Below are positions 35,384 through 62,594 of a stretch of 64,000 nucleotides of DNA, piece after piece (the stretch's first letter is position 1; every line of letters begins with the position of its first letter). Position numbers and translations under genes: made by a program. This stretch comes from an uncultured Spirochaetales bacterium (GTDB lineage: Bacteria; Myxococcota_A; UBA9160; SMWR01): NCBI GenBank assembly GCA_964413375.1, contig CAYPSI010000120.1, positions 4,607 through 68,606 of the forward strand, in the 5' to 3' direction. Under the pieces are notes generated by a model, which saw only the letters and a list, made by a program, of their open reading frames with translations, made no database searches and was not told the origin of the DNA.

Positions 35384-35439
35384 GATCGAGAGAGTAGCGC
35401 GCTGGCCACTCCGGCGTTCCCATGCGATGCTGCGGCGCG

Positions 35440-36213
35440 ATGAGCCCCCTCGCAGCGGCGCGACCTCGGATTCGCGTCGCGCTTCGCAGACGCGCCAGGC
35501 TGCTCGCCGCCCTCGCCATCGCGTTGCTCGCCGCCGGATGCGCGGGCCGCAACACCGTCCTCGGTGGCTACAAAGGGGCGGCGGCGGTGCGCGAGGTCGT
35601 GCTCCTCCCGCTGAACGTCGTGGTCCCGCTGCCCCCGGGTCTCGAGGCAGCCGCCCCCTTCGTCGAAGAGGAGATCCGCAAGTACCTCGACTCGCACGGC
35701 AAGCGCGTGCAGTTGCTGACCGGCGAGGAAGCGCAGGTTGCCTGGCTCGCGAGCGCCCAGGCGCTCAAGGCAGAGGTCGGAGCGTCGCAGATGAGCTTCG
35801 AGGGAGCCGCTGCGATCCTCGCGAAGCAGCTGCATGCGGAGCGCCCTTTCGACGCCCTCGTGCTGCCGTGGATCGCGCTGCGGCCGGCGAAGGTGCGCGG
35901 GCGAACGGTCAGCTGGGACGGCGTTACCCGGACACTCCGGATCGTGAACCCGGAGGGCCGCAGCCTCCAGGTGCTGAAGGACCTGGAAGCCCAGGCCGCG
36001 GCCCCGTCTCTTCAGCTCGCCGTGTTCGCGCCCGACGGCCGCAAGCTCTTCGAGGGCTTGGGAGGCCTCGACCTGCTCCACGCACTCGTCCTCGAAGGCG
36101 AGCCGACCCGGATCGACGCCGAGCTGCTGCCGCGTTCACAGATCTTCGCCGACCGCAGTTCCCTCCAAGAGGGCGTCGCGGTCGCCTTCGACCCCTTCCT
36201 GCCGAAACGCTAG
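35440..36213 (+). CDS. lipoprotein, function unknown
   Basis: MSPLAAARPRIRVALRRRARLLAALAIALLAAGC has the lipobox LAAGC. The track start is 35422. Confidence 0.55.
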   Translation: MSPLAAARPRIRVALRRRARLLAALAIALLAAGCAGRNTVLGGYKGAAAVREVVLLPLNVVVPLPPGLEAAAPFVEEEIRKYLDSHGKRVQLLTGEEAQVAWLASAQALKAEVGASQMSFEGAAAILAKQLHAERPFDALVLPWIALRPAKVRGRTVSWDGVTRTLRIVNPEGRSLQVLKDLEAQAAAPSLQLAVFAPDGRKLFEGLGGLDLLHALVLEGEPTRIDAELLPRSQIFADRSSLQEGVAVAFDPFLPKR

Positions 36214-37610: not shown

Positions 37611-38330
37611 GTGCCCGGGAGCGCCGCTCTCGATACGGCCGCGTCGCGCGAGATCCTGGATGAGGTCGCGCGCGGCGAGAGGCCGGAGACGCTGCGGCTG
37701 TGGTGCCCGGCCGACGCGCTCGCCTTCTCGGTGCTGGACCGCACGCGCCCGGGCTTTCCCGAGGCCGTCGCTGCGGCACGCGCCGCGGGCTTCGAGCCCT
37801 TCCTGCGCCTGGCCGGAGGACATGCCGCGGTGTATGCCCGGGAGGTGCTGGCCTTTGCCTGGGTGATCCCCGCGCCGGACCCCCGCGTCGGGATCGCCGA
37901 GCGCTTCGAAGAGGTGGCCGGCTTCGTCGTCGCGGCGCTTCGCGCACTCGGCGTCGAGGCCCGGATCGGAGAGGTGCCGGGCGAGTACTGCCCGGGGAGC
38001 CACAGCGTGAACGCCCGCGGGTGCGTGAAGCTGATGGGCGTGGGCCAACGCGTGGTACGCGGCGCGGCCTACGTGGGCGGCGCCATCGTCGCGGGCGGTA
38101 GCGATCGACTGCGCGGCGTCCTGCGACCCGTCTACGCCGCGCTCGAGCTCCCCTTCGACCCGAAGGCCCTCGGCAGCGTCGAGGACGAGCGTGCCGGCAC
38201 GGGGCCAGACGAAGTCGCGCTGGCGCTGCTCGCCGTCCTCGCCCGCCACACCACGCTCGAGCCGGGAAGCCTCGACCCGGAGCTCCTCTCCCGCGCGGAG
38301 CTCACGCAAGCGCGCTACGCCGTCGCGTGA
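37611..38330 (+). CDS. lipoate/biotin protein ligase (LplA/LipB-fold) family protein
   Basis: Last part of track ORF 35145..38330. ETLRLWCPADALAFS, AGGHAAVY and GCVKLMGVGQRVVRGAAYVGG fit the conserved Lys motif pattern. The N-terminus is uncertain. The GTG at 37611 is the only canonical start after the upstream stop, and it truncates the expected N-terminal strand. Confidence 0.55.
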   Translation: MPGSAALDTAASREILDEVARGERPETLRLWCPADALAFSVLDRTRPGFPEAVAAARAAGFEPFLRLAGGHAAVYAREVLAFAWVIPAPDPRVGIAERFEEVAGFVVAALRALGVEARIGEVPGEYCPGSHSVNARGCVKLMGVGQRVVRGAAYVGGAIVAGGSDRLRGVLRPVYAALELPFDPKALGSVEDERAGTGPDEVALALLAVLARHTTLEPGSLDPELLSRAELTQARYAVA

Positions 38331-38965
38331 CGGGCTCCACGCGGAGACGACGGCGGGGCGCTGGCGCTCGGCAGCTCGCTTTCCGCCAGGCGCACCACCG
38401 TGATCGCCTCGTCGAGGCAGCGCAGCAAGCGGTTGTAGAGGTAGACCTTCACCGACTCCATCGACGCGAAGCCGAGCAGTGCCAGCACCGTCGCGACCAG
38501 CGCCGTCCCGAGCGCGCCGAGCTCGAGAGCCTGGTTGGAGAGATGCATCGAGAGCAGGCGCATCAGGATTCCGATCGTCGTCCCGGTGAAGCCGATCGGC
38601 GGGAGCAGGTTCGCGTACATCGAGATCGGGCGCGCGTAATGCGTCTCGTACTCGCCGAGCACGTACTGCTTGGTGGCGTCGAGCAGGAACTCGCGCGGAA
38701 GGCCTTCCGGCGCGCTGCCCTCGCGCTGCGACTGGCGCAGCACGCGGACGAAGAGCAGCGCGAGGGGCTCTCCAGCATTATTCGGGGCCTGGCGCCCGCG
38801 TCGCAGATCGGAGGCGTGGACGCGACGCGTGGCGGCGGCCGCGCGCAGGCACACCCGCATCCCGCGGTAGAAGGGGACCCATACCGCCGCGAGCGCCACG
38901 ATCCCCGCCAGGGTCGTGAGGCCCGCCTCGCTCGCCACCAGCTGCGTCAGCAATCCGTCGCCCAA
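38315..38965 (-). CDS. MotA/TolQ/ExbB-family proton-channel protein (3 TM)
   Basis: Three TM segments. The family-typical loop/TM2 motif is MYANLLPPIGFTGTTIGILM, followed by TM3 LGALGTALVATVLALLGFA. Confidence 0.65.
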   Translation of the reverse strand: MGDGLLTQLVASEAGLTTLAGIVALAAVWVPFYRGMRVCLRAAAATRRVHASDLRRGRQAPNNAGEPLALLFVRVLRQSQREGSAPEGLPREFLLDATKQYVLGEYETHYARPISMYANLLPPIGFTGTTIGILMRLLSMHLSNQALELGALGTALVATVLALLGFASMESVKVYLYNRLLRCLDEAITVVRLAESELPSASAPPSSPRGARHATA

Positions 38966-38980
38966 AGCACTTCTCCTTGC

Positions 38981-39511
38981 TCAGCCCCGCCACTTGCGTC
39001 GGCGCAGGGCCTCGATCGCGGTTCCCAGCGGGCTCTGTTCCCCGACCGGGTAGTCGACGAGCAGGCTCTCGCGGCCCGCGTAGCGGCGCGCCAGCTCGTC
39101 GAGTTCGTGCTGCACGCGCCCGGTGTCGCGAAGCTCGACGAGCAGCTCGGCCTCGAGCAGGCGCAGGCTCGCGTCGAGCGCCATCAGCTCCGCATGGCGA
39201 CTCTGCCACTCGCTGCGCAGCAGCGGGGCGAGGTGACGCGCGAGGTAGGCCTGGAGGAAGCTCCCGAAGAGCATCGATCCGTTGCGGTCCTCGCGCCGAC
39301 GCAGGTCCAGCAGCGTCGTGCGCTGGTGCACCATGTCGCGGTAGGCGCGCTCCATCTCGCGGCGCCGTTGAGCCAGCGCCGCGCCACCCAGCGGCGTCGT
39401 CTGCTCCTCGATCGTCTCCTCTCCATCGAAGGCGTGAAGGGGATCGGGCGCAGTCGCGCAGCCGGCGAGTGCGGTCGCGACGAGCGCGAGAGCCCGGAGA
39501 CGATGCAGCAT
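38981..39511 (-). CDS. helical lipoprotein, function unknown
   Basis: C-terminal part of track ORF 38981..39985. ATG 39511 follows GAGGAGGG. MLHRLRALALVATALAGC has the lipobox LAGC. The remainder is predicted helical and charged. Confidence 0.6.
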   Translation of the reverse strand: MLHRLRALALVATALAGCATAPDPLHAFDGEETIEEQTTPLGGAALAQRRREMERAYRDMVHQRTTLLDLRRREDRNGSMLFGSFLQAYLARHLAPLLRSEWQSRHAELMALDASLRLLEAELLVELRDTGRVQHELDELARRYAGRESLLVDYPVGEQSPLGTAIEALRRRKWRG

Positions 39512-39546
39512 GGCACGACCCTCCTCGCAGAAGCGCTTCCGGTCGC

Positions 39547-41544
39547 TCACGAGCGCGACTCGAAATACATCCGGCGCAGCAGCGTGTGCACCGGGTGGTC
39601 CCGCCGCGCGCGCAGCTCGTCGGAGAGCCCCTGCGTGGCACGCGCCGCCCGGTAGGCCGGGAGCGCGCGCGCGCGGGCCTCGACCTGCGACTCGAGGTTC
39701 TCGAGCAGCGCCGCCAGCTCGACCCGCTCGCGCACTCGGTCGTTCCGATCGAGGATCTCGGCAGCCGCCGCGGGCGGCGCCGCCACCTCCGGGTCGCTTC
39801 CGCCGAGCGCGGCGAGCCGCGCCCGGGCCTGGTCGCGCTCCGCGCGGAGCGCGACGAGCCCGCGCTCGAGCTCCTCCACGCCCATCCCCTCCGCGAAGCC
39901 GAGGTGCAGGATCGCTTCGCTGTTCGCGAGCCCCGCGCGCACCCCCGCGATCTGCTCCGCACCGGCCTGCCCCTGCTCGACCCACGCGTCGACGACCTGC
40001 GAGCCCGTGACCCGCTCGGCCACCGCGCGCCCGAGAGCCAGGAACTCGCTCTCGCGGCCCTGGTTCTGGAGCGCGGCACCGAGCGCCGGCCAGAGCCGAC
40101 GCTCGAAGGGGAAGAGCAGCAGGGCCTGCCGGTACGCCTGCGTCGCGAGCTCGATCTCCGCCTGGGTCGGGTGCGCCGCGTACGCGAAGAAGGCGTCCCC
40201 GAGCCCTCGCGCCGCCTCGTGCGCGGCGAACCAGGCGGAATCCGGCACTCCCTGCTGGCCCGCCGTCTCGGCGAACTCCCGGAAGAAGGCGAGCATGCGC
40301 GCATGGATCCGCGCCGCGTTTCGGCTGTGGAGATCCGCCGCCTCGGGCTTCTCCGCCGCCAGTGCCAGATAGTGGTCCGCGGCGTTGAGCCCCGCCTCCT
40401 GGATCTCCTCCCAGAGGCCACGCATCGCCGCGAGATAGGCCGCGCGTCCGACGCCGGCGTAGCCGAGATCCTGCCAGCCCTCTCCCTCGGCGCCGCGGAG
40501 CTCGCGGTAGACGGCGATCGCGCCTTCGATGTCGAAGGGGAGCGCGATCTCGGGATCCGCGCCGAGCCGCTGCTTCGCGGCGTAGACCTCGCCGATCAGG
40601 CGCAGCGCCCGCGTATGCACGGCGCAGCGACCCTGCGCGGTGTCCGCGCGCTCGAGCGCGCGCTCGTAGGCCGCTCCCGCCACGCGGATCGCTTCGGAGG
40701 TCTTGGGCTCGAAGCCCTTCTCCGCGAGCAGTCCGCGCGCGCGATCGTGATGCTTCGCCGCCTCGAAGAGCGCGAGCGTGAAGGTGAGGCTCCCCGCGTC
40801 GGACTCCGGGCCGTCGAGCCTCGCCACGATCCGCTCGACGTAAGCGCGCGAGGAGGCCTCCCGCGGAACCACGCGCGGGTGGGCACCCACGCGCCCGTCG
40901 AGGAGCATCCGGACCACCGCGCCGAGCGGGTCGAGACCGCGATCGATCCCGCGCTCCTGGCTGCGGATCAAGATCAGCCGCGCGACGTTCTCGTAGACGT
41001 AGGGGAGTGCCGCGACGAAACCCGCGCCGGTTCTTTCGTCCAGCGCGAGCGCCCGAAGCGCCTCGAAAGAACCCTCGAGAGGAACCACCACCTCGAGCCA
41101 GAGAGAAAGCACCTCCGCGACGAAGTCGTGACGGCGCCCGGTGGCCAGCGCCTCGTGGGCCAGAACCGTGTGGTGCCAGTAGCGGTTCTCGTGGCGCCCG
41201 AGCCAGCGCTCGAGTGCGTGCGCGGCGCGCACGCTGCGCTCCAACGCCTCCGCATCTCCGGTGGCGAGGTGTTGCAGCAGCCAGGCGATCGCCGTGCGGC
41301 GCGTTGCGGTCTCTTCGAGCGATGCTGCGTCGGCCGCGCCGCCGTAGCCCGCGAGCACGCGCTCGAAGGGAGTCCCCGCCTCGCGCCCGTACTGCTCGAG
41401 CCTCGCGCTCAATGCGCCGGGATCTGCCGACGAGTAGACGTAGGCGTAGTCGAGGTAGGCGTCCCAGGCCGTCCCCTCGTCCGCGGCGGACGGGAGCGAC
41501 GCGCAGACTGCCGCCAGGAAGATGGCCAAGAGCGTGCTTCTCAT
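39547..41544 (-). CDS. 665-aa secreted all-helical (TPR-like) protein with C-terminal coiled coil, function unknown
   Basis: C-terminal two-thirds of track ORF 39547..42927. ATG 41544 overlaps the upstream stop as ATGA. Signal peptide MRSTLLAIFLAAVCASLPSAA. It shows Ala/Leu/Arg-rich helical repeats and then ERDQARARLAAL...LENLESQVEARARAL. Confidence 0.6.
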   Translation of the reverse strand: MRSTLLAIFLAAVCASLPSAADEGTAWDAYLDYAYVYSSADPGALSARLEQYGREAGTPFERVLAGYGGAADAASLEETATRRTAIAWLLQHLATGDAEALERSVRAAHALERWLGRHENRYWHHTVLAHEALATGRRHDFVAEVLSLWLEVVVPLEGSFEALRALALDERTGAGFVAALPYVYENVARLILIRSQERGIDRGLDPLGAVVRMLLDGRVGAHPRVVPREASSRAYVERIVARLDGPESDAGSLTFTLALFEAAKHHDRARGLLAEKGFEPKTSEAIRVAGAAYERALERADTAQGRCAVHTRALRLIGEVYAAKQRLGADPEIALPFDIEGAIAVYRELRGAEGEGWQDLGYAGVGRAAYLAAMRGLWEEIQEAGLNAADHYLALAAEKPEAADLHSRNAARIHARMLAFFREFAETAGQQGVPDSAWFAAHEAARGLGDAFFAYAAHPTQAEIELATQAYRQALLLFPFERRLWPALGAALQNQGRESEFLALGRAVAERVTGSQVVDAWVEQGQAGAEQIAGVRAGLANSEAILHLGFAEGMGVEELERGLVALRAERDQARARLAALGGSDPEVAAPPAAAAEILDRNDRVRERVELAALLENLESQVEARARALPAYRAARATQGLSDELRARRDHPVHTLLRRMYFESRS

Positions 41545-42635
41545 CCCTCGTGAAGCTCCCTTCGCATCCCGCGCGCGAGGCAATCGAGCGCCAGGGTCAG
41601 CTCCTCGCAGCGGTCCCCGGCGCGCCGCATCGGCGAGCGCTCGACCCAGAGGAGGAATGCGTTCACGTTCTTCGTCTCGACGAAACGCCAGGTACCGGCT
41701 TCGCTCGTGCACTCTTCGGGCCTCGCTACCGATGCGACGACGCGCTGGCGCAGCGCATCTTCCTCGCGGTCCGACAGGCAGGCCGCGAGGGCGGCGAGCG
41801 AGACGCCCTGCAGCTTCGAGCTCGCCGGCGTGGCAACGCTCGGAGACGCGGGCGGCGGCGGCGTGGGCGCGAGCGCGCGCCCGCTGGAAGGAGCCGGAGA
41901 CGCCGAGCCGGGAGAGGCCTGCGCGAAGCGCGGAGGGACGAGTGCTTGAGGCCGCGACGAGGCGGCGCGCGGCGACTCGCCCGCGCGTTCCCGGCGCGGC
42001 GCGCGCGACGAAAGCTCCGGCGATGCAGCCAACGCGAGCGGCGGAGCCAGCGGCGCTGCGAGATCCGCGAGCGTGCGCATCGCGCGGGGCGGCGCGCGGC
42101 GCGGGGCGACGCGCGGCGCAACGACAGTCTCGAGCGGCAGCGCGGCCACGCGCAGCGGCTCCGGCGCGATGACCGGTCGCACCGGCTCTCGCACCGTCCG
42201 CGCGGCCTCGGGTGCGGGCGGTGGCACTGACGACACGAGCCGAGCCGGCGCCGGATCGACGGCTCTCGCGACGAGCGGCTGCGCAGGCGGAGGCAGCTCC
42301 GGCTCTGGCAGAGCGGCCTCCGGCGGCGGGAGCTTCTCGGGCAGGTCGGGTGCGAGCGAGGCGATCTCCACCAGCAGCTCGGCGGGAGGCTCGAGCCAGA
42401 CCATCTCGCGCTCCGAGGGCTCGTCGAAGACGCTTGCGAGTGCCAGCAGCAACGCGAACGCCGCGCCGGCGAACGCTCCGCCGCGCAGCAGCGCACACAG
42501 CCCTCCCGCGCTCCCGAGCTCGCGCAGCGCGGTCCGCAGCCCCGCCGCGCTCGACGCCGAAGCGTGTGGCGAGGCCGGCAACGCGAGCCGCGCAGCGCCA
42601 AAGCCGTACTGAGCGACCAGACGCGCGTTCGTCAC
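41541..42635 (-). CDS. TonB-like proline-rich membrane-anchored protein with non-TonB C-terminal 4-Cys domain
   Basis: In frame with track ORF 41541..43055. The GTG at 42635 overlaps the upstream stop as GTGA. Single TM GGAFAGAAFALLLALASVF. Pro-rich spacer LPEKLPPPEAALPEPELPPPAQP...PPPAPE...PPPPASP. C-terminal roughly 90 aa: ACLSDREEDALRQRVV...ECTSEAGTWRFVETKNVNAFLLWVE...DRCEELTLALDCLARG. Confidence 0.55.
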   Translation of the reverse strand: MTNARLVAQYGFGAARLALPASPHASASSAAGLRTALRELGSAGGLCALLRGGAFAGAAFALLLALASVFDEPSEREMVWLEPPAELLVEIASLAPDLPEKLPPPEAALPEPELPPPAQPLVARAVDPAPARLVSSVPPPAPEAARTVREPVRPVIAPEPLRVAALPLETVVAPRVAPRRAPPRAMRTLADLAAPLAPPLALAASPELSSRAPRRERAGESPRAASSRPQALVPPRFAQASPGSASPAPSSGRALAPTPPPPASPSVATPASSKLQGVSLAALAACLSDREEDALRQRVVASVARPEECTSEAGTWRFVETKNVNAFLLWVERSPMRRAGDRCEELTLALDCLARGMRRELHEG

Positions 42636-43084
42636 TGGGGGCTTGGCAGCCGATCGACGAGCGCGAGGCGGACGCCGGGCCAGTCGATCTCGAGCAGGCT
42701 CGCCGCCGCGAGCAGATCGCTGCTGCGCGAGTCCTCGTGGGGTGCGAGCAGAGGACGTTCCGCCCGGGCATCTCGCAGCGCATGCAGACGCGCCCGCAGC
42801 TCGCCCTCGGCAAGGCGCTCGGAAGCTCCCTCGTTGCCGCGCACGAGCGCGAAGGGCGGCGCCGCCGCCTCCGGAGCGTAGACGCGCAGCTGCCAGCGAT
42901 CGCCCGCGCGGGCCGAGAGCGCGGCACCCGACTCGCGCGCGATCTGAGGCACCTCGAACTCGCCGAGCTTCGGCGCCGAGGCCGCGTCGGGATCCACCTG
43001 AGTGAGCATCACGAGCGTCAGGAACGAGGTGAGATCCACGAAGGAGAAGAGCCACGCGGGAGCCCCGTCACTGGATCGCGACAT
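42632..43084 (-). CDS. ExbD/TolR-family protein
   Basis: ATG 43084 is in frame with track ORF 42632..43261. The N-terminal TM carries the conserved Asp (WLFSFVDLTSFLTLVMLT). The periplasmic domain pattern is FEVPQIA...WQLRVY...LLAPHEDSRSSDLLAAASLLEIDWPGVRLALV. Confidence 0.6.
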   Translation of the reverse strand: MSRSSDGAPAWLFSFVDLTSFLTLVMLTQVDPDAASAPKLGEFEVPQIARESGAALSARAGDRWQLRVYAPEAAAPPFALVRGNEGASERLAEGELRARLHALRDARAERPLLAPHEDSRSSDLLAAASLLEIDWPGVRLALVDRLPSPQ

Positions 43085-43202
43085 GGAAGAAGTAGCGGCA
43101 ATGCGCACCGCCACCCGGTGAGCCGCGTCACGCAGCACTCGCGCCGCTCGCGCGATGCAGCCAACACGCAATCGGAATCCACCCGATGGGAGCCCCTCCC
43201 CG

Positions 43203-43955
43203 ATGCGATCTTCCCGCCTCGGAGTCCATGCCCTGCTCTTGCTGATCGGGCTTGCTGGCACACTGCCGGCCCCTGCCGCCCGCGCCGGCGACGTCTACGC
43301 CTCCGCCACGCTCGCGATCTCCACCGGCGAGGGACGCGCGGGAGGCAGCACTCCCTTCTTCGCCAACGGCGGCAGCGACACGGACTCGTCGCCCGCGTAT
43401 GGCCTCGCTGCGGGCTTCGCGATCCCCTTCGAGGAAATCTTCCCGGATCGCCGCACAGCGATCTCGGACTGGTCCGTGCGGGTCGAGCTCGAGGGTCTCG
43501 CTGGGCGCGACTACGAGCTGCGTGCGCAGGGAGCCGAGCCCTACCTCTCCGAGGTCTACACCTGGACACTGATGCAGAACGTCTGGCTCGACGTACCCCT
43601 CGAGCGGCCGATCGCACATTTCTTCGGGCGCATCCCCGTGCTGGCGCCGCTCTCCTTCTCGCTCGGCGCCGGGATCGGGCTCGGCGCGAACGACGTCACG
43701 ACGACGGACAACGTCTCCAAGGGGAGCAGCGTCTCCTACGCCTTCGCCTGGCAGGCCGGCGCGGGCATCGGCTACGCGCTCACGCGCAACGTCCACATCG
43801 GCCTCGCCTATCGCTATCTCGACCCGGGCCAGGTGGAGCTCGATCTGAGCGCGGGGCAGACCCCCTTCGGAAGCTTCGAGCTCGATCTCTCCGCTCACGA
43901 GGTTGCGACCACCCTGCGCGTATCCTTCTACCCGGTGCCGCTGCGCGGGCGCTGA
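43203..43955 (+). CDS. outer-membrane beta-barrel protein (OmpW/opacity/porin-family-like)
   Basis: Signal peptide MRSSRLGVHALLLLIGLAGTLPAPAARA. It has alternating-hydrophobic strands (FAWQAGAGIGYAL, VHIGLAYRYL) and a C-terminal aromatic strand, TTLRVSFYP. Confidence 0.65.
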   Translation: MRSSRLGVHALLLLIGLAGTLPAPAARAGDVYASATLAISTGEGRAGGSTPFFANGGSDTDSSPAYGLAAGFAIPFEEIFPDRRTAISDWSVRVELEGLAGRDYELRAQGAEPYLSEVYTWTLMQNVWLDVPLERPIAHFFGRIPVLAPLSFSLGAGIGLGANDVTTTDNVSKGSSVSYAFAWQAGAGIGYALTRNVHIGLAYRYLDPGQVELDLSAGQTPFGSFELDLSAHEVATTLRVSFYPVPLRGR

Positions 43956-43963
43956 GCCGTCGC

Positions 43964-46510
43964 GTGCGCAGCCGCGCGCCGAGGACGGGCGTTCGGAAGA
44001 CCTCGCGCCGCAGCGGCATCGCCACCTTCGCGCTGATCCTCGTGGCTGCCGCGCGGGTCGGCACGGCGGCGCAGCCGCCGGTCGCGATCTACGGCGCCGA
44101 GATCTTTGCCGACGGAGCGAGCGAGCGCGTGCTCGTGTTCGCCGACCGCCCGGTCGAGGCGAGGCTCGATCGCGTCGGCCCGGACCACCTGCGGCTCTGG
44201 ATCGCGGGCGCCGTGCTCGACGATTCGGCGCCGCGATGGCTGGCGCCTGCAGCGCCGCGCGAGGTCCTTCGCGTGGATCTCTCCGAGGCGTCCGGCCTCG
44301 ACACGCCCACCGTGCTGATCGAGATCCAGGGCACGCGAGCGATCGAGCGCGCCGAGCTTTCGCGCGAGGCCGCGCTCCTCGCCATCGAGATTCCGCTGCG
44401 CGCCGCGGAGCCGGGCGACGGGATCGTCCTCTCGATGCGCGCGACGTCGCTTCCGGACGCCGTGCGAGCGGTCGCGAGCTCGACCGGTACGCGTTTCGTC
44501 TTCGACGAGCGGCTCGCCGGTCGCGTGACGCTCAGCACTCCCGCACCGGTCAGCGTCGCCGAGGCGCTCGGCCTCCTCGATGTGGCGCTCGCTCTGAGCG
44601 GCTTCGTCGCACTCCCCGCCCCAGATGGATCGCGCCGCATCCTCCCGGCCGACCTCGCAGCGGCACTGGCTCCCTGGAAGCCGCAAGACGGCGGCGAGCC
44701 GGGCGAGCTGCGAGGTGAAGGCGAGCACGGGGCGGGCCCCCGCGCGGGATCGCTCGAGAGCGACCGCGAGGCCCCGGTCGTGACGCTCGTGCGGCTCGCT
44801 GCGGCGCGCGCGGAGGAGGCGGTCGCTGCCTTGCGTCCCTGGCTCGGAGGCGCCCTCGCCTACGCCCACGCACCCGGCAACGCCGTGCTACTCGCCGGCT
44901 CCGAAGCGCGCCTGCACGGAATCCTGGCGCTGCTGCGCGCCCTCGACGAGGCAGCGGCGGAGACGCTCTGGGTGCGCCGCGTGCGCCACCGCCCGGCGGG
45001 CGACCTCGCGGAGTGGCTGCGCGCGGGGCTCGCAGCGCCCCGAGGCCGGGCTTCGAGCGCCCAAGTCTGGTCCGACGCGCGCAGCAACGCACTCATCGTG
45101 CGGGCTTCCCACGATGAACTCGGCGCGATCCAGGCACGGGTCGCGAGGCTCGACCGGGCCGAAGCCCAGCAGGGCGCGTTGCGCGTACTGCGCGTGCGCC
45201 ACGCGGAACCCCGGGCGCTGGCCGAACGGATCCGCGCCCTCGCAGCCTCGGGCGAGGCGGCGGAGGGAGCGACGCTCGCGACGCGGGCGCTCTCGGTCGC
45301 ACTCGACGCGCCCACCCACTCGCTACTGATCGCGGCCGACCCGGAGACCCATGGCCTGGTCGAGGATCTGGTGCACGAGCTCGATCGCCCGGCCCGGCGC
45401 ATCGCCGTCGAGGCGATCGTGCTCCAGGTCGAATCCGACGCCTCGCTCGCGATCGGCTTCGACGCCTTCCTCCCGCTCGTGATGCCCAAGGCACCGGGCG
45501 ATCTCGTCGCGGCAATGCTCCTCGATCCGACCGGCGCAGGCCTCTTGCAACCGGGCGCCGGAGCGGGGCCCGCGGGCGCGGCGCGCTACACGCGCGAGCC
45601 GCTCGTGATCCCGATCGTCGACGCCAACGGGAATCCGACCGAGGTGCTGGTTCCGCGCGAGAGCTTCGTCGTGACGGCCGACGGACGGGAGATCACCTCG
45701 CGCGTGCTGATGCGCCCGCATCTCGTGGTGGCGAGCGGCGAGGAGCAGGAGATCTTCGCGGGCGATCAGGTCCCGATCCCGGTCGCCGCGAAGGAAACCG
45801 GAAACGTCTTCGAGGTGAGGCAGGAGATCGAGCGCCAGGACGTCGGCGTGCGGATGCGCGTGCGGCCGACGCTCGGCGCGGCGGGCCTGGTGCGGCTCGA
45901 GCTCGACCTCGAGCTCTCGCACGTGGTGGCCGGAGCCCGCGTCGGCCGGCACGCGGGGCCGGTGCTGCGCCAGCGGCGGCTCCAGTCCACCGTCCACCTC
46001 GCCGACGGCGAAGTCGCCGTCGTCGGGCTCGCGCGCGAGGAGCTCGATCAGGCGATGCAGCGGGGAACGCCCGGGCTCGCGGATGCCCCCGGCATCGGCG
46101 CGCTCTTCCGCGCCACACAGGAGCGCCGACGCACAGCCGAGGTCGCCGTTGCGGTGCACGTGCGCGTCCTCCGCGACGACGCCGAGCTCGCCGCGGACGG
46201 GATCCGCCGACGCCTCGGCGTCGAGCGCAGCCTCGCTCGGCAGGGCCCCCTCGGCGCGCACGGCGACGCAGGCTGGGCGCTGCTCGTCGCGACGCACGAC
46301 GAGGCGGCGGTGGCCGGTGCGCTCGCCGACTCGCTCGCGCGCGAGGGTCTCGCGATGCGGACCGTCGCATGGACCTGGGAGGGTCTCACCCGCTTCGACG
46401 TCTACGCGACCGGCTTTGCGGACCTCCCGGCCGCCGCCGCCAGCGCGAGCCGCCTGGCGGCCCGTGGGCTCAACGCCGAGCTCGTAGCGCTTCCGGTTCC
46501 CGGGGCCTGA
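43964..46510 (+). CDS. secretin (GspD/PilQ family) with N-terminal AMIN-like domain and C-terminal SPOR-like domain
   Basis: Last 848 codons of track ORF 42212..46510. The GTG at 43964 lies 8 nt after the OMP stop. Signal-like segment RKTSRRSGIATFALILVAAARVGTAA. Repeated secretin_N-like units (VVTLVRLAAARAEEAVAALRPWL...; LRVLRVRHAEPRALAERIRAL...). Secretin core: QEIFAGDQVPIPV...VGVRMRVRPTL...STVHLADGEVAVVGL...TPGLADAPGIGALFR. C-terminal segment: GWALLVATHDEAAVAGALADSLAREGL...FDVYATGFADLPAAAASASRLAARGLNAELVAL. Confidence 0.75.
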   Translation: MRSRAPRTGVRKTSRRSGIATFALILVAAARVGTAAQPPVAIYGAEIFADGASERVLVFADRPVEARLDRVGPDHLRLWIAGAVLDDSAPRWLAPAAPREVLRVDLSEASGLDTPTVLIEIQGTRAIERAELSREAALLAIEIPLRAAEPGDGIVLSMRATSLPDAVRAVASSTGTRFVFDERLAGRVTLSTPAPVSVAEALGLLDVALALSGFVALPAPDGSRRILPADLAAALAPWKPQDGGEPGELRGEGEHGAGPRAGSLESDREAPVVTLVRLAAARAEEAVAALRPWLGGALAYAHAPGNAVLLAGSEARLHGILALLRALDEAAAETLWVRRVRHRPAGDLAEWLRAGLAAPRGRASSAQVWSDARSNALIVRASHDELGAIQARVARLDRAEAQQGALRVLRVRHAEPRALAERIRALAASGEAAEGATLATRALSVALDAPTHSLLIAADPETHGLVEDLVHELDRPARRIAVEAIVLQVESDASLAIGFDAFLPLVMPKAPGDLVAAMLLDPTGAGLLQPGAGAGPAGAARYTREPLVIPIVDANGNPTEVLVPRESFVVTADGREITSRVLMRPHLVVASGEEQEIFAGDQVPIPVAAKETGNVFEVRQEIERQDVGVRMRVRPTLGAAGLVRLELDLELSHVVAGARVGRHAGPVLRQRRLQSTVHLADGEVAVVGLAREELDQAMQRGTPGLADAPGIGALFRATQERRRTAEVAVAVHVRVLRDDAELAADGIRRRLGVERSLARQGPLGAHGDAGWALLVATHDEAAVAGALADSLAREGLAMRTVAWTWEGLTRFDVYATGFADLPAAAASASRLAARGLNAELVALPVPGA

Positions 46511-47438
46511 GCCGGCCCCGGCGCGGCGCGCGGCCAGCCGCCGCCGCGAGCGAGCCTCCGAGGCGCCCCCGCGCGTCCATCCACACGTTCGGGAGTCCCA
46601 GCCGATCGAGCCAGGCCGGGCCGGCGACCCGGCCGCGAAGCATCGCCACGGTCGAAGCGGTGCCGGCCACCAGGCAGTGAGCTGCTGCGACGCTGACGGC
46701 GGAGAGACCCGAGACGGGCCAGCCGCTGCGCGGGTCGAGAACGTGTGCGTAGCGCCGCCCGTCGACGACGAGGCAGCGCTCGTAGTCGCCGCTGCTCGCG
46801 AGCCCCCCGCCGAGAAGCGAGACGGTCGCCATCGCGCTCCCGGGATCGCGGGGATCTCGGATCCCGATCCGCCAGGGAACGCCACCCGGGTGCGGACCCA
46901 CGACGGCGAGGTCTCCACCGAGATCGACGAGGCCGTGATGCGCGCCGTGTCGGCGGCAGAGCTCCGCCGCCCGATCGGCCGCGTACTCCTTCACGTAGCC
47001 TCCGAAGTCGAGCTCCATGCCCGCGTCTGGAAGCGCGACCCTCGGCCGCTCCCAGAGAACGCGCCCGAAGCCCACGAGCGGGAGCAGCGCCAGGATCTCC
47101 TCGCGGCCGGGAACCCGCCCGGAGCGGAAGTTCCACGCGCGGCGCAGCACGCCCGAGCTGATGTCGAAGAGTCCGTCGCTCTCGCGGTACGCAGTCGCCG
47201 CGTAGTCGAGCAGCGTCGCCGTCTCCTCATCCACCACGACGCCCGCCGGATCGCCGGCACTGCGATTGATCCGGGAGGCGAGGCTCGTCTCCTGGTAGCG
47301 CGAGAACTTTCGCTCGAGGCGGCCCACTTCGGCGATGGCCGCTCCCGCCACCGCGCAGGCGGCCTGCTGCGAGCCGCCGTAGAGCCGGATCTCGCAGGGG
47401 CTCCCCATCGCGCGAAAAGGAAAGTGGAAGAGCTCCAC
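46470..47438 (-). CDS. apbE: FAD:protein FMN transferase (ApbE family)
   Basis: FRAMGSPCEIRLYG, FSRYQETSLASRINRSAG, DFGGYVKEYAADRAA and LVDLGGDLAVVG are typical ApbE blocks. Confidence 0.85.
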   Translation of the reverse strand: MELFHFPFRAMGSPCEIRLYGGSQQAACAVAGAAIAEVGRLERKFSRYQETSLASRINRSAGDPAGVVVDEETATLLDYAATAYRESDGLFDISSGVLRRAWNFRSGRVPGREEILALLPLVGFGRVLWERPRVALPDAGMELDFGGYVKEYAADRAAELCRRHGAHHGLVDLGGDLAVVGPHPGGVPWRIGIRDPRDPGSAMATVSLLGGGLASSGDYERCLVVDGRRYAHVLDPRSGWPVSGLSAVSVAAAHCLVAGTASTVAMLRGRVAGPAWLDRLGLPNVWMDARGRLGGSLAAAAGRAPRRGRLRPREPEALRARR

Positions 47439-47441
47439 GCC

Positions 47442-48626
47442 TCAGAACCTCGCGCTGAGTGCGATCGAGAAGAGGTGGAAGGAGACGAGTCCGGGATTCT
47501 CGAGCGAGACCTTCCCGAGCGCATAGTCCCCGGAGCTCAGATAGCGCTGCCACGAGAAGGCCGCGCGCCAGTCGATGGGCCCCGTCGCAAAACGCGTCTC
47601 GGCCTTCAGGCGCCACGAGATCGCACCGTAGGGCGAGAGCCGATAGTCGCTCGAGGCCTCGCCATCGGAAGGCGCCGTCTCGAAATAGGGGCCGTAGAAG
47701 TCCGCCTGGCTCTGGCTGTAGTAGCGGAAGGAGGGGACCAGGTGGATCGCATCCCAGATCGCCTGATCCCAGGCCAGCTCGAGCGTGTGCGAAGTGACCT
47801 TCCAATCGTCCGCGTAGAAGCGGTAATCCGCCTGGAGCGTGCCGGCGATCGGCTCGACGTGGTGCCGATAGCGCGTGAGCCAGGTGAGCTGATGCCGCGC
47901 ATCCGGGCGGCTGTCGGCGACCGGATTGCCTGCCACGAGCACCTGTTTGTAGGGATCCGAGAGGTAGCCCGTCTGGCGCTGGAAGGTGAGCGAAGACTGG
48001 AGCGCCGCTTCGCGGCTCAGGATCTGCGCGATTCCGGCGAAGACCGTGCCGCTCCACTTCTTCTCGTGCGAGGGGCGCGTCGGAAAGAGCTCGGCGTCGG
48101 TGGGCTCGATCCGATCGATCGAGAACGCGCTGCCCGCGGAGAGGGTCGTCCGCTTGTCCGCGAACTCGCGCTCGCCGCGCAGGCTCCCGTTCCACGCGAA
48201 GTAGTCGTTCTCCTTCGAGATCCCCCCGCCGAGGGTCGCCCGACCGCGATCGAAGTGCAGCATCGCCTCGACGAGCGCATCCGTGCGCTGGTCCTCGATC
48301 GTGGCGCCGCTCATGACCTGCACCGGGTTGCCATCGGCGTCCGGGATGACGTACCAGGGCGAGGCGCCGCTCATCTTCTCGTGCACCAGATCGACCCCGA
48401 GATCGACGCGCGCAAAGAGCGGGCCGGCGAGACGGATCTGGTGGATGTCGACTTCGTAGCGGCTGCGCTCGCCGCCGGGCGTCACCTTCGACGCAGGCAG
48501 CGGGTCCTCGGAGTAGCGCGAGTAGCTGTACTCGGCCGAAAGCTGCGAAAGGGGGCCCTCCGCTGCAGCGTCCCGCGCGAGGCCCGGAAGCGCCAGCGCC
48601 GCGCTGCTGAGGGCCGCGAGCGCCAC
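47442..48626 (-). CDS. DUF3570 domain-containing (predicted outer-membrane barrel) protein
   Basis: Track ORF 47442..48911. YSYSRYSED...YEVDIHQIRL...ENDYFAWNGSL...YLSDPYKQV...YRFYADDW...FRYYSQSQADFY matches my recollection of DUF3570. The start is uncertain. The GTG at 48626 is the only canonical start downstream of the DUF4266 stop. The in-frame upstream stretch is hyper-basic (RRRARRRRARREPARRRCRKRRS). Confidence 0.65.
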   Translation of the reverse strand: MALAALSSAALALPGLARDAAAEGPLSQLSAEYSYSRYSEDPLPASKVTPGGERSRYEVDIHQIRLAGPLFARVDLGVDLVHEKMSGASPWYVIPDADGNPVQVMSGATIEDQRTDALVEAMLHFDRGRATLGGGISKENDYFAWNGSLRGEREFADKRTTLSAGSAFSIDRIEPTDAELFPTRPSHEKKWSGTVFAGIAQILSREAALQSSLTFQRQTGYLSDPYKQVLVAGNPVADSRPDARHQLTWLTRYRHHVEPIAGTLQADYRFYADDWKVTSHTLELAWDQAIWDAIHLVPSFRYYSQSQADFYGPYFETAPSDGEASSDYRLSPYGAISWRLKAETRFATGPIDWRAAFSWQRYLSSGDYALGKVSLENPGLVSFHLFSIALSARF

Positions 48627-48750
48627 GCTGCGCCGCTTGCGGCATCGACGCCGTGCGGGCTCACGTCGCGCGCGGCGGCGCCGTGCGCGACGCCGCCCGA
48701 TGGCGTGCGACGGCCTCAGGAGCGGATCGGGGGCGCCCCGCGGCGCGAGA

Positions 48751-48963
48751 TCAGTTGCATCCGCATCCCCCGCCGCCAGCGCCCCCGCCCGGGAGCGACG
48801 CCTCCTTGCTGAAGTAGACGTGCTGGCTGCGCCGGGACTCCATCGGGTCCGGGTCGAAGGCCATCTCGGGCTTCGCCAGGAGGTCGCGCTCCCACGGCTG
48901 CACCGGCGCACAGGCAGCGCAGGCGAGGAGGCCCAGCAGCGAGCCGATGGCTACGCGCAGCAT
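48751..48963 (-). CDS. DUF4266-like small lipoprotein ending in GGGCGCN
   Basis: MLRVAIGSLLGLLACAAC carries a lipobox. It contains ERDLLAKPEMAFDPDP and a Gly/Cys C-terminus, GGGAGGGGCGCN. Confidence 0.7.
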   Translation of the reverse strand: MLRVAIGSLLGLLACAACAPVQPWERDLLAKPEMAFDPDPMESRRSQHVYFSKEASLPGGGAGGGGCGCN

Positions 48964-48968
48964 CGCGC

Positions 48969-49481
48969 TCAGCGCCCGCCGACGAGATCGGCGATCCGGG
49001 CGCGCAGAATCGCCACGTCACCACGTTCGAAGCCGCGGTGCACGTAGCGGATCACGCCCTTGCGATCGATCAGGTATGAGGTGGGCATCGTCTCGACCCC
49101 GAAACGCGCGGGAATCAGGCCCTCCGGATCCATCGCGCTCGCGTAGCCGACGGGGCTGCGCGCCAGGAAACGACGCGCCGCTTCGGGCTCGCGATCGACG
49201 TTCACCGCGAGCACCGCGAAGGCCTCGGCCGGAAACTCGCGGCGCAACATCTCGAGCGCCGGTAGCGCCGTGCGGCAGGGGGCGCACCAGGAAGCCCAGA
49301 AGTCGAGGTACACGACCTTGCCGCGCGCGGCGGAGAGCGACACGGGTGCTCCACCCACGAGCGCCGGAGCGCTCCAGTCGGGAGCCACGTCGCCTTCCTC
49401 GATCGCGAACGCGGGCCGAGCGACGAGCGCGGCGCAGATCGCGAGCAAGCAAACGAGAGAGGAGGGAGTCTGCGGGTACAT
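48969..49481 (-). CDS. TlpA-family periplasmic thiol:disulfide oxidoreductase
   Basis: In frame with track ORF 48969..50687, starting at ATG 49481. It has a signal peptide and LDFWASWCAPCR (the WCxxC thioredoxin motif). Confidence 0.85.
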   Translation of the reverse strand: MYPQTPSSLVCLLAICAALVARPAFAIEEGDVAPDWSAPALVGGAPVSLSAARGKVVYLDFWASWCAPCRTALPALEMLRREFPAEAFAVLAVNVDREPEAARRFLARSPVGYASAMDPEGLIPARFGVETMPTSYLIDRKGVIRYVHRGFERGDVAILRARIADLVGGR

Positions 49482-49537
49482 CGACGGCTCGCTCTCCCAT
49501 CGCATCGACCGGCGGGCGGGCGCCCGCGTGATTCGGA

Positions 49538-51343
49538 TCACGACGCGGCCGCGGCGCGGAGCGCCCCGACCAGCAGATCGACCGTGAGCAGCTCCGGAAG
49601 CATCCGCGGCGTCGCAGCGTCGCCCCCCCCATAGACGACGTAGGCGGGGACGCCGGCGCGTCCGAAGCGCGCCAGCTCGGAGCGGATCGCCTCGTCGCGG
49701 CGGGTCCAGTCCGCGCGAAAGACCGCGACGCCGAGCTCGCGAAGCGTCGCGCGGACGCGTTCGTCGTCGAGCACGAGCCGCTCGTTCAGCTTGCAGGTCA
49801 CGCACCAGTCGGCCGTGAAGTAGACGAAGGCCACGCGACCGGACGCGACCTGCGCCGCGACCGCTACCGGGTCGAAGACGAGCGCCGGCGCAGCGTCGTC
49901 TCCGACCATCGCCTCGAAGCGCGAGAGTCCCACTAGAGTCGCCAGCAGCGCCGCCCCGATCGATACCGTTGCCGCGAGACGCCCGCGCCCCTCCGCGCGC
50001 TGCCGCCAGCCGAGCCCGTGCGCGACGAGTGCCGCGAGCCAGAGCAGCACGAGCGTCGCCGAGACCGCGCCGGACTCCGCGACGCGACCGAGGACGAAGA
50101 GCAGCCAGACGACGGTCGCGAGCAGCGCGAGACCGCCGAGCCGGCGCAGCTCCAGCATCCACGGACCCCCGCGCGGGAGGAAGCGCATCGCCCCGGGTGC
50201 GACGACGACCACGAGGACCGGCAGGGCGAGGCCGAGGCCGATCGCGGCGAAGACGACGAGCACCTGCTCGGCGGAGCCCGCAAGCGCGAAGCCCACCGCC
50301 GCACCGAGGCAGGGGGCCGTGCAGGGAGTCGCGAGCGCCACCGCGAGAAGCCCATCGAGAAAGCTCCGGCGCGGGCCCGTCGCCTGCGAGCCGACCCGGG
50401 CGAGTGAACCCGGAGGGGCGCCGATCTCGTAGACCCCGAGCAGGTTCGCCGCGAGGAGTGCCGTCACGATCGCGAGCGCCGCCACGAAACGGGGCTCCTG
50501 GAGCTGGAAGCCCCAGCCGACGGAGGCCCCGCCCGCACGCACGAGGAGCGTCGCCGTCGCGAGCATCCCCATCGCGGAGAGGGTTCCTCCCGCATAGGCG
50601 AGCGCGTGGGCCACCATCGCCCGCCGCTCGAGGCGGGCTACCTCGGCGAGCCAGGCGAGCTTGATCGCAAGCACCGGCAGCACGCACGGCATCGCGTTGA
50701 GCAGCAGCCCGCCGAGGAGCCCGAGCGCCACGGCGGCCAGCAGGCCCGAGGCGCCCGCTGGCGACGACGCGCGGGAGCCGCGCCCGACCGCATGCTGTGT
50801 CTCGAGCGGGAGCGCGGCGAAGCGCGCGCGCACCCGCGCGGCATCCGGGTCCGCACGTCCATCGAGCGTGCGTACCAGCGAGATCTGCGCGGGGATGCAG
50901 CGGTCACGGCATGCGACGAGATCGATCTCGGCGCGCGCGACGCTCGGCATCGCGGCCTGACCTTCGAAGCGAGCTTCGCTCGGCAGCCAGAGCGTCCCCG
51001 AGTGAACTCGGGTCGCGAGGCCCTCCTCGACGAGCTCGCTCGGCGCAGGCCAGGCGATCGGAGCGACGCGGGCACCCTCCACATGGAGGGCGACGCGCGT
51101 CGGCAAGCCGAGCTCGCCGGGATCCCGGTCGTAGACGTGCCAGCCCGGTGCGATCTCGAGCTCGACGCCGAGACGCACGCGCCCTCGCGGCACCACGTCG
51201 TCCGGATGCGCTAGCAGCCGCGCGATGACTCGCGGCTCGCCCTCATCGATCGCGGCGGCCACGCGCAGGGAATCGCTCGGCTCTGCCGCAGCCGTACCCG
51301 CGAGCCATGCGAGGAGTCCCAGACCGGTGAGCGCTCGCCTCAT
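49538..51343 (-). CDS. DsbD/ScsB-family thiol:disulfide interchange protein (N-terminal periplasmic domain, TM core, C-terminal thioredoxin)
   Basis: In frame with track ORF 49538..51739, starting at ATG 51343 (MRRALTGLGLLAWLAGTAAA). N-domain motif VACRDRCIP. TM-core cysteines at NAMPCVLPVL and ATPCTAPCLG. C-terminal VYFTADWCVTCK. Confidence 0.8.
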   Translation of the reverse strand: MRRALTGLGLLAWLAGTAAAEPSDSLRVAAAIDEGEPRVIARLLAHPDDVVPRGRVRLGVELEIAPGWHVYDRDPGELGLPTRVALHVEGARVAPIAWPAPSELVEEGLATRVHSGTLWLPSEARFEGQAAMPSVARAEIDLVACRDRCIPAQISLVRTLDGRADPDAARVRARFAALPLETQHAVGRGSRASSPAGASGLLAAVALGLLGGLLLNAMPCVLPVLAIKLAWLAEVARLERRAMVAHALAYAGGTLSAMGMLATATLLVRAGGASVGWGFQLQEPRFVAALAIVTALLAANLLGVYEIGAPPGSLARVGSQATGPRRSFLDGLLAVALATPCTAPCLGAAVGFALAGSAEQVLVVFAAIGLGLALPVLVVVVAPGAMRFLPRGGPWMLELRRLGGLALLATVVWLLFVLGRVAESGAVSATLVLLWLAALVAHGLGWRQRAEGRGRLAATVSIGAALLATLVGLSRFEAMVGDDAAPALVFDPVAVAAQVASGRVAFVYFTADWCVTCKLNERLVLDDERVRATLRELGVAVFRADWTRRDEAIRSELARFGRAGVPAYVVYGGGDAATPRMLPELLTVDLLVGALRAAAAS

Positions 51344-51593
51344 CGGTCTTCGCAATCGGTTGCAGGCAGCCTCCGGAGCGTGACGAAAGACCCGAAGCGA
51401 CCGCAGCGCTACGACCCCGTTGCCGGTGCACGCCGCACGTAGCGGCTGCGAAGCTCCCGCGCGAATCGCCCGCGCCGCCTTGGCTTTGGCCGCTGGTGAC
51501 TCGTGATACCGGTTCCCCCCGCGCGCTGGCCGATCTCTCCCCTTGCGACCGCGCGTTGGCCCCGCCGACGCGGTCGGGAGCGGAGGCCCTGCG

Positions 51594-54934: not shown

Positions 54935-54969
54935 GCGTGCGAAGCCCTTGCCGCCGGGACGGAGGTGTC

Positions 54970-62520: not shown

Positions 62521-62594
62521 GTTTGGCAGGCGTGCATGATACGTGCGGCGCGCTGGCGGCCTCGCTCGACACCATCGGCCGCGGGGGGAAATCC

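Follow-up and report, generated by a model that had tools for sequence, protein, structure and literature searches.

What kind of envelope process is served by an operon that couples a divergent ExbB/ExbD-type pair to a TonB-like protein and to two exported helical proteins? The question is raised by five minus-strand genes within a 64,000-nucleotide stretch of contig CAYPSI010000120.1 (hereafter the window, meaning the whole stretch at its full length), which derives from an uncultured bacterium and for which a sequence-only reading had proposed a non-canonical envelope machine driven by the proton-motive force (PMF). On balance, our analysis inclines slightly towards the view that these genes, encoding an ExbB-like and an ExbD-like stator protein, a transducer (T), a large helical protein (X) and a lipoprotein, represent a previously undescribed Ton/Tol-class PMF energy-transducing module; full-text literature searches returned no description of it.

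The five genes lie where they had been placed (Table 1), and coordinates, junctions and codon-position composition all agree. Read from the sequence, the exbD-like gene and T share a GTGA overlap (42632-42635), T and X share an ATGA overlap (41541-41544), and gaps of 35 nt and 15 nt separate X from the lipoprotein gene and the latter from the exbB-like gene, respectively. The ATG of the lipoprotein gene has a GGAGG 8 nt upstream, and an AAGGAG stands ahead of the TTG start of the exbB-like gene. The motifs FSFVDLTSF and LLPPIGFTGTTIG were both found, and four Cys lie within the final 90 residues of T. Long spurious open reading frames (ORFs) are abundant in the window, the G+C content of which is ~72%; the five ORFs, however, combine a G+C of 0.83-0.90 at third codon positions (0.83 in the exbD-like gene, 0.87 in the lipoprotein gene) with 0.48-0.63 at second positions, and because this is a coding signature, they are genuine coding genes, unlike the spurious high-GC ORFs. 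A promoter and terminator scan of positions 37800-46800 found none above shuffled expectation.

To place the operon in a wider context, we surveyed one genome per GTDB species and obtained 58 loci, all from metagenome-assembled genomes (MAGs) of uncultured Myxococcota or 'Deltaproteobacteria'; counts out of 60 comprise these 58 scanned loci plus L001 and L002, which were obtained first and duplicate L007 and L016. All five genes occur in the order of the window in 39/60 loci, another 12 are cut by a contig end, and orthologous operons have the same 4-nt overlaps. Since the five genes are co-detected in so many related loci, their arrangement is far from chance. NCBIfam gave no match for any of the five proteins and their homologues are all named 'hypothetical', which sets the locus apart from an annotated Tol-Pal or Glt/Nfs locus. 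Failure of the profile searches, a locus already known and a lack of synteny, the three outcomes named by the sequence-only reading as speaking against it, were not what we found. Several MAGs labelled 'uncultured Spirochaetales' or 'Spirochaetaceae' carry a Myxococcota-type locus with 43-56% protein identity (Table 1), and the isolate name of one of them contains 'MYXO'; these labels are probably wrong.

The invariant core of the module is formed by X and the lipoprotein, which co-occur even in loci without stator genes or T. X has a signal peptide and is Sec-exported, and its AlphaFold2 (AF2) model (predicted local distance difference test score, pLDDT, 86; predicted template-modelling score 0.79) is an all-alpha TPR-like solenoid with a long coiled coil (~residues 594-635) and a conserved C-terminal helix, much as had been read from the sequence. 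Foldseek returned only generic TPR superhelices (Ctr9, OGT, IFT-A, APC) with TM-scores of 0.1-0.2 and no specific relative, and X matched nothing in Pfam or NCBIfam, TPR models of Pfam included. All 418 homologues found by word index are 'hypothetical' and devoid of Pfam domains; organism labels, which only a few of them have, point to Myxococcota MAGs. A profile search of 1.84 billion representatives gave 305 X-family clusters (50% identity), 89 of them below E 1e-30, and included a tier of distant full-length relatives. X also varies, having a C-terminal AMIN domain in L065 and occurring as tandem paralogues in L069. The lipoprotein is helical, its lipobox was confirmed (LAG/C with Ala at +2), and it is probably located in the outer membrane (OM). 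It matches no Pfam or NCBIfam model and has no OmpA-like domain, and it represents a conserved family without annotation, present in 55 Myxococcota loci and, by family hidden Markov model (HMM), beside X in all eight distant loci in which the flank is present.

Where these distant X relatives have a name, it is 'hypothetical', and they come from MAGs labelled Thermodesulfobacteriota, Desulfobacterales or Nitrospirota, the latter two labels being attached to single X homologues. Their loci (G+C 40-61%) were checked with HMMs built from the Myxococcota families. Five of them (L065, L066, L068, L070 and L071, of which L066 comes from a Thermodesulfobacteriota MAG) have the complete set of families, arranged as lipo-exbB-exbD-T-X, and three are partial (L063, lipo-T-X; L067, lipo-X; L069, T-X-X). 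A cyclic permutation of the complete arrangement, specific to the lineage, gives the order of the window, exbD-T-X-lipo-exbB. The separation of the stator genes had been taken as a special trait of the locus, and in the window three genes of the same operon do stand between them; in the five complete distant loci, however, the exbD-like gene is beside exbB, and the split stator is therefore a rearrangement without functional peculiarity.

With respect to the stator, the 216-aa protein passes the Pfam MotA_ExbB model (PF01618; 23.9 bits, cut-off 22.9), which also matches 32/51 of its orthologues (E<0.01) and reaches 37.3 bits with a distant one. Searched against the sequences of the PDB, the family profile matches only TolQ (E 0.0085), MotA and PomA, and hhalign aligns the family with E. 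coli TolQ over transmembrane (TM) helices TM2-TM3 (E 4e-4). Three TM helices are present: hydropathy places TM1 at residues 10-28 and TM3 at 149-167, and the alignment with TM2 of TolQ places TM2 at ~115-140. TM2 carries the motif LLPPxGxxG(T/N), in which G(T/N) is kept in 51/51 sequences, as is a Ser/Thr at position 159 of TM3; the Thr/Asn of TM2 and the Ser/Thr of TM3 align with T145 and T178 of TolQ, and the membrane residues Glu148 and Glu170 are conserved or invariant. The family comprises 529 homologues, every one of them named 'hypothetical'. These comparisons support the earlier assignment of the protein as a 3-TM, if divergent, channel protein of the MotA/TolQ/ExbB family. A Zorya-like defence system was considered and dropped, as seven proteins matched no PADLOC model at E<0.01, ZorA and ZorB included.

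Both stator proteins are so divergent that they lie at the edge of the Pfam models. For the ExbD-like protein, Pfam ExbD (PF02472) is the top family, matching 9/40 orthologues (E<1, best E 0.0014), and the consensus of the family reaches 25.2 bits (cut-off 25.4; E 1.9e-5), the match spanning profile positions 10-115 of 128 and thus the TM helix and the periplasmic domain. The protein has a short cytoplasmic N-terminus, a predicted TM helix at residues 10-28 and a periplasmic domain of ~110 aa. Its TM Asp17 (FSFVDL) is invariant in 40 orthologues and is retained in distant ones (FAFADL, FSFTDT). When canonical ExbD/TolR was sought by tblastn in the ~1 Mb of collected loci, none was found; hmmsearch, run locally against ExbD and TolR of E. 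coli, aligned only a few TM residues and is, with a single-sequence template, uninformative. Taken together, the 150-aa protein is supported as a remote homologue of ExbD/TolR, so that of the earlier description the conserved TM Asp stands and the family assignment is narrowed to remote homology.

T has a cytoplasmic N-terminus with the motif YGxGAA, followed by a predicted TM helix (residues 52-70), and a linker of ~200 aa, rich in Pro and Ala, leads to the C-terminal domain of ~90 aa; Pro and Ala account for 14% and 20% of the whole protein. Four Cys of the C-terminal domain (C22, C45, C79 and C88) are invariant in 52 sequences, distant phyla included, and probably form two disulfides. When the protein collection was searched with this domain by word index, only 12 fragments were returned; AF2, run on a 13-sequence alignment, predicted the order beta-alpha-beta-beta-beta-alpha with a pLDDT of 66. 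T appears to share only the architecture of TonB/TolA, its head being, as far as the searches reach, a Cys-rich domain without detectable relative. The name TonB-like, given to it in the sequence-only reading, therefore holds for the layout only; the single TM helix, the Pro-rich spacer, the four Cys and the unlikeness of the C-terminal domain to TonB_C were all borne out.

The T of the window has no TM His and hence no SxxxH motif. Among ~27 stator-encoding loci, T mostly carries the N-terminal motif [YH]GxG[AGV][AGT] or a close variant, and S/TxxxH with its His in the TM helix is absent from all of them. In three loci without stator genes (L027, L034 and L063), the N-terminal motif is missing and a TM His occurs in an S/AxxxH context instead (GSLLLHG, GAALLHG, ASAVLHI; SxxxH in L034 and L063, AxxxH in L027), a comparison of three loci with ~27 and thus a small sample. 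The S/AxxxH of stator-less T follows the pattern of the motor-binding motif of TonB/TolA, in which the TM His has a described role (PMC12204202). The simplest reading is that orphan T use the housekeeping ExbBD or TolQR and that the other T co-evolved with their own stator; the difference looks like a natural switch in motor choice, and the correlation supports a role of T as a transducer. A ~200-aa gene that follows the lipoprotein gene in stator-less loci was considered as a hidden ExbB and rejected, as it encodes a kinase-like P-loop protein.

Table 1. Positions of the genes and features discussed, in the window and in other loci.
Feature	Sequence	Positions	Strand	Remarks
exbD-like gene	window	42632-43084	minus	150 aa; ATG start
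T (TonB-like) gene	window	41541-42635	minus	364 aa; GTG start
X gene	window	39547-41544	minus	665 aa; ATG start
Lipoprotein gene	window	38981-39511	minus	176 aa; ATG start; lipobox LAGC
exbB-like gene	window	38315-38965	minus	216 aa; TTG start
OMP_b-brl small OM beta-barrel	window	43155-43955	plus	divergent from the operon, followed by the secretin; Pfam E 1e-10
GspD-like secretin	window	~43964-46510	plus	N0, three Secretin_N, Secretin, C-terminal SPOR-like; start codon uncertain
DsbD-redoxin-DUF4266-DUF3570-ApbE block	window	46470-51739	minus	
c5	window	51543-52751	plus	~400 aa; secreted; one conserved CxxCH
c8	window	52736-54934	plus	~720-730 aa; probable lipoprotein; N-terminal CxxCH; Laminin_G_3 (ConA-like)
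c7	window	54853-56487	plus	~500 aa; twin-arginine (RRxFL) signal; start codon uncertain
Second OMP_b-brl gene	window	62532-63257	plus	E 6.5e-12
Probable lipoprotein	window	35422-36213	plus	263 aa; LAAGC
Stator-less T	L027	6940-8004		compared with window 41541-42635
Stator-less T	L034	6700-7935		compared with window 41541-42635
Stator-less T	L063	2600-3928		compared with window 41541-42635
X with C-terminal AMIN	L065	8342-10819		
Tandem X paralogues	L069	887-4967		
Mono-haem cytochrome c, PAP2 phosphatase, multi-haem cytochrome	L070	11473-14974		after the module
c5-c8-c7 trio	window, L018, L021, L023, L026, L028, L030, L031, L041, L044, L049, L051, L052			
Spirochaetales/Spirochaetaceae-labelled loci	L008, L010, L013, L033, L034, L036, L040, L041, L045, L047, L048, L054, L058			

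The OM barrel and the secretin that diverge from the operon in the window were recovered with the expected Pfam domains (Table 1), as the sequence-only reading had it. OMP_b-brl genes adjoin the module in 15 loci, and in the stator-less L032 and L034 they stand directly before the T/X genes on the same strand; the window has a second OMP_b-brl gene ~19 kb from the first. Against TIGR02517 (GspD), the window secretin scores 220 bits, below the cut-off of 351, and, with no GspE, GspF or GspG among the larger ORFs of the window, the locus does not appear to belong to a type II secretion system (T2SS). A SPOR tail is present in 7/21 orthologous secretins (best E 7e-9) and is matched weakly by the window copy (E 0.012, ~46200-46510); AMIN is on record for the secretin orthologues of L001 and L002. 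No description of a SPOR-tailed secretin was found in the literature searched. The secretin adjoins the module in 26/60 loci, and four different arrangements occur. It is divergent and upstream, accompanied by the OMP barrel, in loci arranged like the window; in eight loci it stands immediately after exbB in convergent orientation; in L039 and L050 it lies upstream on the strand of the module; and in stator-less loci it is found between ApbE and the OMP barrel. The secretin link is real in Myxococcota but absent around the eight distant modules.

Clustering of all ORFs of the loci revealed a further trio of genes, c5, c8 and c7 (Table 1). c5 clusters with ORFs in 18 loci; the Laminin_G_3 domain of c8 (E 3e-17) recurs in the orthologues of L021 and L044, and its CxxCH is found in 13/16 ORFs of the family, two of which are fragments of one gene; the RR motif of c7 is kept in 14/16 members. 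c5 and c7 have no Pfam or NCBIfam match, c8 has none beyond Laminin_G_3, and no PDB match is known for any of the three, phmmer of c7 having given one weak, irrelevant match and no relative. A GGYDYH stretch in c7 is reminiscent of the DUF1501 motif. In the eight loci of the convergent class, c5-c8-c7-secretin form an operon with c7 directly upstream of the secretin, whereas L041, L044, L049 and L051 have, by gene call, a co-directional operon c5-c8-c7-exbD-T-X-lipo-exbB. The layout c5-c8-c7-module is also kept in L042, L052 and L058, with some members lacking a gene call; L046 and L047 retain c7 alone at a contig end, and L053 has X directly after c7, with no exbD or T between them. In the window, the trio is located just beyond the DsbD-ApbE block. 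As the module, the secretin and c5-c8-c7 have been re-associated through rearrangements, we argue for a functional link among them in this clade.

By Pfam, the other large ORFs of the window include metabolic genes and the DsbD-redoxin-DUF4266-DUF3570-ApbE block, and such blocks lie beside the secretin or the module in L001, L002, L005, L027, L032, L034, L039 and L050. This adjacency may be only local synteny, and the presence of a disulfide-handling block beside a four-Cys transducer and CxxCH proteins is suggestive. In the distant L070, genes for a mono-haem cytochrome c, a PAP2 phosphatase and a multi-haem cytochrome follow the module, and these cytochromes may echo the CxxCH proteins c5 and c8. 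On the other side of the operon, 2 kb downstream and on the opposite strand, lies the gene for a 263-aa probable lipoprotein without Pfam match, which is not conserved beside the module in other loci.

How might these parts work together? What the analysis shows directly is the structure of the genes and their translational coupling in one operon, the membership of the ExbB-like protein in its family, the remote homology of the ExbD-like protein, the folds or topologies of X and T, and synteny across phyla. We propose that the two stator proteins, the ExbD-like one contributing its invariant TM Asp, would form an inner-membrane proton channel of the 5:2 type, which would drive the inner-membrane-anchored T, the Pro/Ala-rich linker of which would span the periplasm. 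The four-Cys head of T would then engage the effector pair, X and the lipoprotein, near the OM, and SPOR or AMIN modules would place the complex on the peptidoglycan. The peptidoglycan-binding partner in this Myxococcota lineage would be the SPOR-tailed GspD-like secretin together with the small OM barrel, and for this reason the orphan secretin, with the exported c5-c8-c7 proteins, would be the most probable client of the motor here. The 5:2 stoichiometry, the coupling of T to the stator, the contacts among T, X and the lipoprotein, and the action on the secretin are the steps that we infer.

Several results weigh against this model. The ExbD-like protein of the window has no Pfam ExbD match, the profile of its family retrieved no ExbD/TolR from the PDB (chance matches only, E>0.4), and its hhalign comparison with E. 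coli TolR was negative, few TM residues being aligned with a single-sequence template. Neither T nor the consensus of its C-terminal domain matches Pfam, TonB_C included; the 52-sequence profile of this domain found nothing in the PDB, neither TonB nor TolA, its hhalign comparison with E. coli TolA was negative, and Foldseek with the low-confidence model (pLDDT 66) gave no match at E<0.1. In 5/60 loci (L027, L032-L035), one or both stator genes are truly missing and T, X and the lipoprotein are kept; because these five Myxococcota loci have no stator genes at the locus, the effector pair may be able to function with no motor of its own. No secretin lies within ~9 kb of the eight distant loci, and ~8 Myxococcota loci with full flanks have neither secretin nor c5-c8-c7 nearby. 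Therefore, secretin coupling is not the ancestral function of the module, and the coupling, though plausible, is specific to this lineage. All source organisms, moreover, are uncultured.

A proposal that goes further is that the locus encodes a motor-driven secretin pathway, in which the stator and T would replace the pseudopilus and the ATPase of a T2SS and would open or load the SPOR-secretin for surface export of c5, c8 and c7, with X and the lipoprotein in the roles of periplasmic scaffold and pilotin. It draws on the recurrence of the secretin beside the module in its four arrangements, on the place of c5-c8-c7 within the secretin operon of eight loci and of the trio, or a remnant of it, upstream of the module in about ten others, on the twin-arginine translocation (Tat) signal of c7 and on the CxxCH of c5 and c8. 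The TPR lipoproteins Tgl and TadD, furthermore, are secretin pilotins. Pfam detected no GspE ATPase, GspF platform, GspG-type pseudopilins or type IV pilus parts among the larger ORFs of the 64 kb window, although T2SS genes could sit elsewhere in the genome. We know of no precedent for a Ton-type motor acting on a secretin, and the distant and full-flank Myxococcota loci without a secretin nearby also argue against such a pathway, which we regard as unlikely. Spelled out in full, the stator would pull via T on X and the lipoprotein under the SPOR-anchored secretin, a Ton-type motor thus operating the secretin in place of pseudopilus and ATPase and gating or loading it for the passage of folded, Tat/Sec-exported haem-motif proteins (c5, c8 and c7) across the OM; in this detailed form it is distinctly improbable. 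A point in favour of a secretin pathway in general comes from GspB/OutB, a TM-anchored scaffold that ties the secretin to the inner membrane and the peptidoglycan (PMC9239104) and that resembles T: both cross the inner membrane once, continue in a periplasmic linker and end in a small C-terminal domain, and both are encoded beside a GspD-like secretin. GspB, however, is not coupled to an ExbB/ExbD motor, the Cys-rich head of T matches no solved structure, and further T2SS genes are missing from the larger ORFs of the window.

The energy-transducing module that we favour resembles the Ton system in a channel of the MotA/TolQ/ExbB family, in an ExbD-like subunit that keeps the essential TM Asp, in an N-terminally anchored, Pro-rich third protein that spans the periplasm, and in the order exbB-exbD-T of distant lineages. 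It differs in lacking TonB_C, an SxxxH motif (in the window T) and a TonB-dependent receptor, and in its two obligatory extras, X and the lipoprotein, which have no counterpart in Ton. The Vibrio TonB2 cluster, with the order TtpB-TtpC-ExbB2-ExbD2-TonB2-TtpD, is a parallel in layout: its motor operon is flanked by helical periplasmic and TPR proteins, as in lipo-exbB-exbD-T-X. The module could thus be an import energiser of the TonB2 type, powering uptake via an OM transporter encoded elsewhere or via the small barrel, with X and the lipoprotein acting like TtpD and TtpB. The mirrored layout (helical periplasmic protein, ExbB, ExbD, TonB-like protein, TPR protein) and the OMP_b-brl genes beside the module would fit. 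Pfam scans of the larger ORFs of the window, however, found no TonB-dependent receptor, TolB or Pal, in agreement with the sequence-only reading; the small barrel has no plug domain, the lipoprotein has no DUF3450 match, and neither a large TtpC-type protein nor TonB_C was matched. The module, in addition, occurs in other phyla than the Vibrio cluster and has no TonB-dependent partner. Import energisation appears very improbable to us.

Tol-Pal with CpoB offers another comparison, TolQ being the best solved-structure match of the ExbB-like family and both systems combining, in a multi-gene operon, an OM lipoprotein with a coiled-coil/TPR-like protein and recurrent links to SPOR or AMIN. Could the module be an analogue of Tol-Pal in envelope integrity or division, in which the PMF-energised T would pull the OM lipoprotein and X at septal peptidoglycan? 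X would then be CpoB-like and the lipoprotein Pal-like, and the adjacency of the secretin would mean no more than that both are installed at the septum or the pole. Part by part, the module parallels tolQ-tolR-tolA-(tolB)-pal-cpoB, X has TPR-like repeats and a coiled coil, and the module is autonomous in distant phyla. SPOR domains target septal peptidoglycan, and a SPOR protein is encoded directly upstream of the module in L068 and L071. AMIN domains likewise target septal peptidoglycan (PMC2572700); one is found at the C-terminus of X in L065 (30 bits), and an AMIN protein adjoins the module in L069. Yet the five proteins and their neighbours include no TolB-like propeller, the all-helical lipoprotein has no OmpA-like peptidoglycan-binding domain, the head of T is unrelated by sequence to TolA domain III, and X is ~2.5 times the size of CpoB and matches no TPR model of Pfam. 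Canonical Tol-Pal is possibly also present in these genomes, and localisation alone hardly explains why, in Myxococcota, the module has come to lie beside the secretin and c5-c8-c7 again and again. We consider the analogue rather unlikely. By sequence, the tests that define TonB/TolA and Tol-Pal membership were negative, and the N-terminal anchor and linker are what T shares with TonB/TolA.

Force transducers that are neither TonB nor TolA have recently been proposed elsewhere: vWA proteins, the genes of which stand next to those of TolQR-like motors and to an uncharacterised TPR gene, in a study that makes no mention of Myxococcota, secretins, SPOR or AMIN (PMC12204202). They share with the module a motor joined to a novel transducer head and a TPR partner; they differ in that their head is a vWA domain and their TM His binds the motor, whereas the head here has four Cys and stator-paired T lack a TM His. 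The Agl-Glt/Nfs machines of myxobacteria, with which the sequence-only reading drew a loose comparison, likewise unite a TolQR-type motor, TonB-like proteins, TPR proteins and OM barrels in an envelope complex. By parts list (Glt sequences did not enter the comparison), the module is much smaller, consisting of five genes only without a GltA/B/H/K-type set; MotA_ExbB is its only named-family match, T lacks TonB_C, X has no TPR match, and the module is also found in non-gliding lineages, e.g., Thermodesulfobacteriota MAGs. The resemblance to Agl-Glt/Nfs is thus generic only.

Only a handful of routes are known by which proton energy is carried from the inner to the outer membrane, namely Ton, Tol, Agl-Glt, GldLM/PorLM and the recently proposed vWA transducers. 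The module described here would add another, in which a known motor class appears to be joined to a head domain and to two obligatory partners, X and the lipoprotein, without detectable relatives, and the conservation of which extends at least to Myxococcota and to lineages of the Thermodesulfobacteriota type. The occurrence of T with and without a dedicated stator represents a natural experiment, which could show how transducers choose their motors. Finally, the repeated re-linking of the module to an orphan secretin in one lineage raises the question of whether a Ton-type motor can work a secretin; if true, systems for secretion, or uptake, would gain a new, PMF-driven class.

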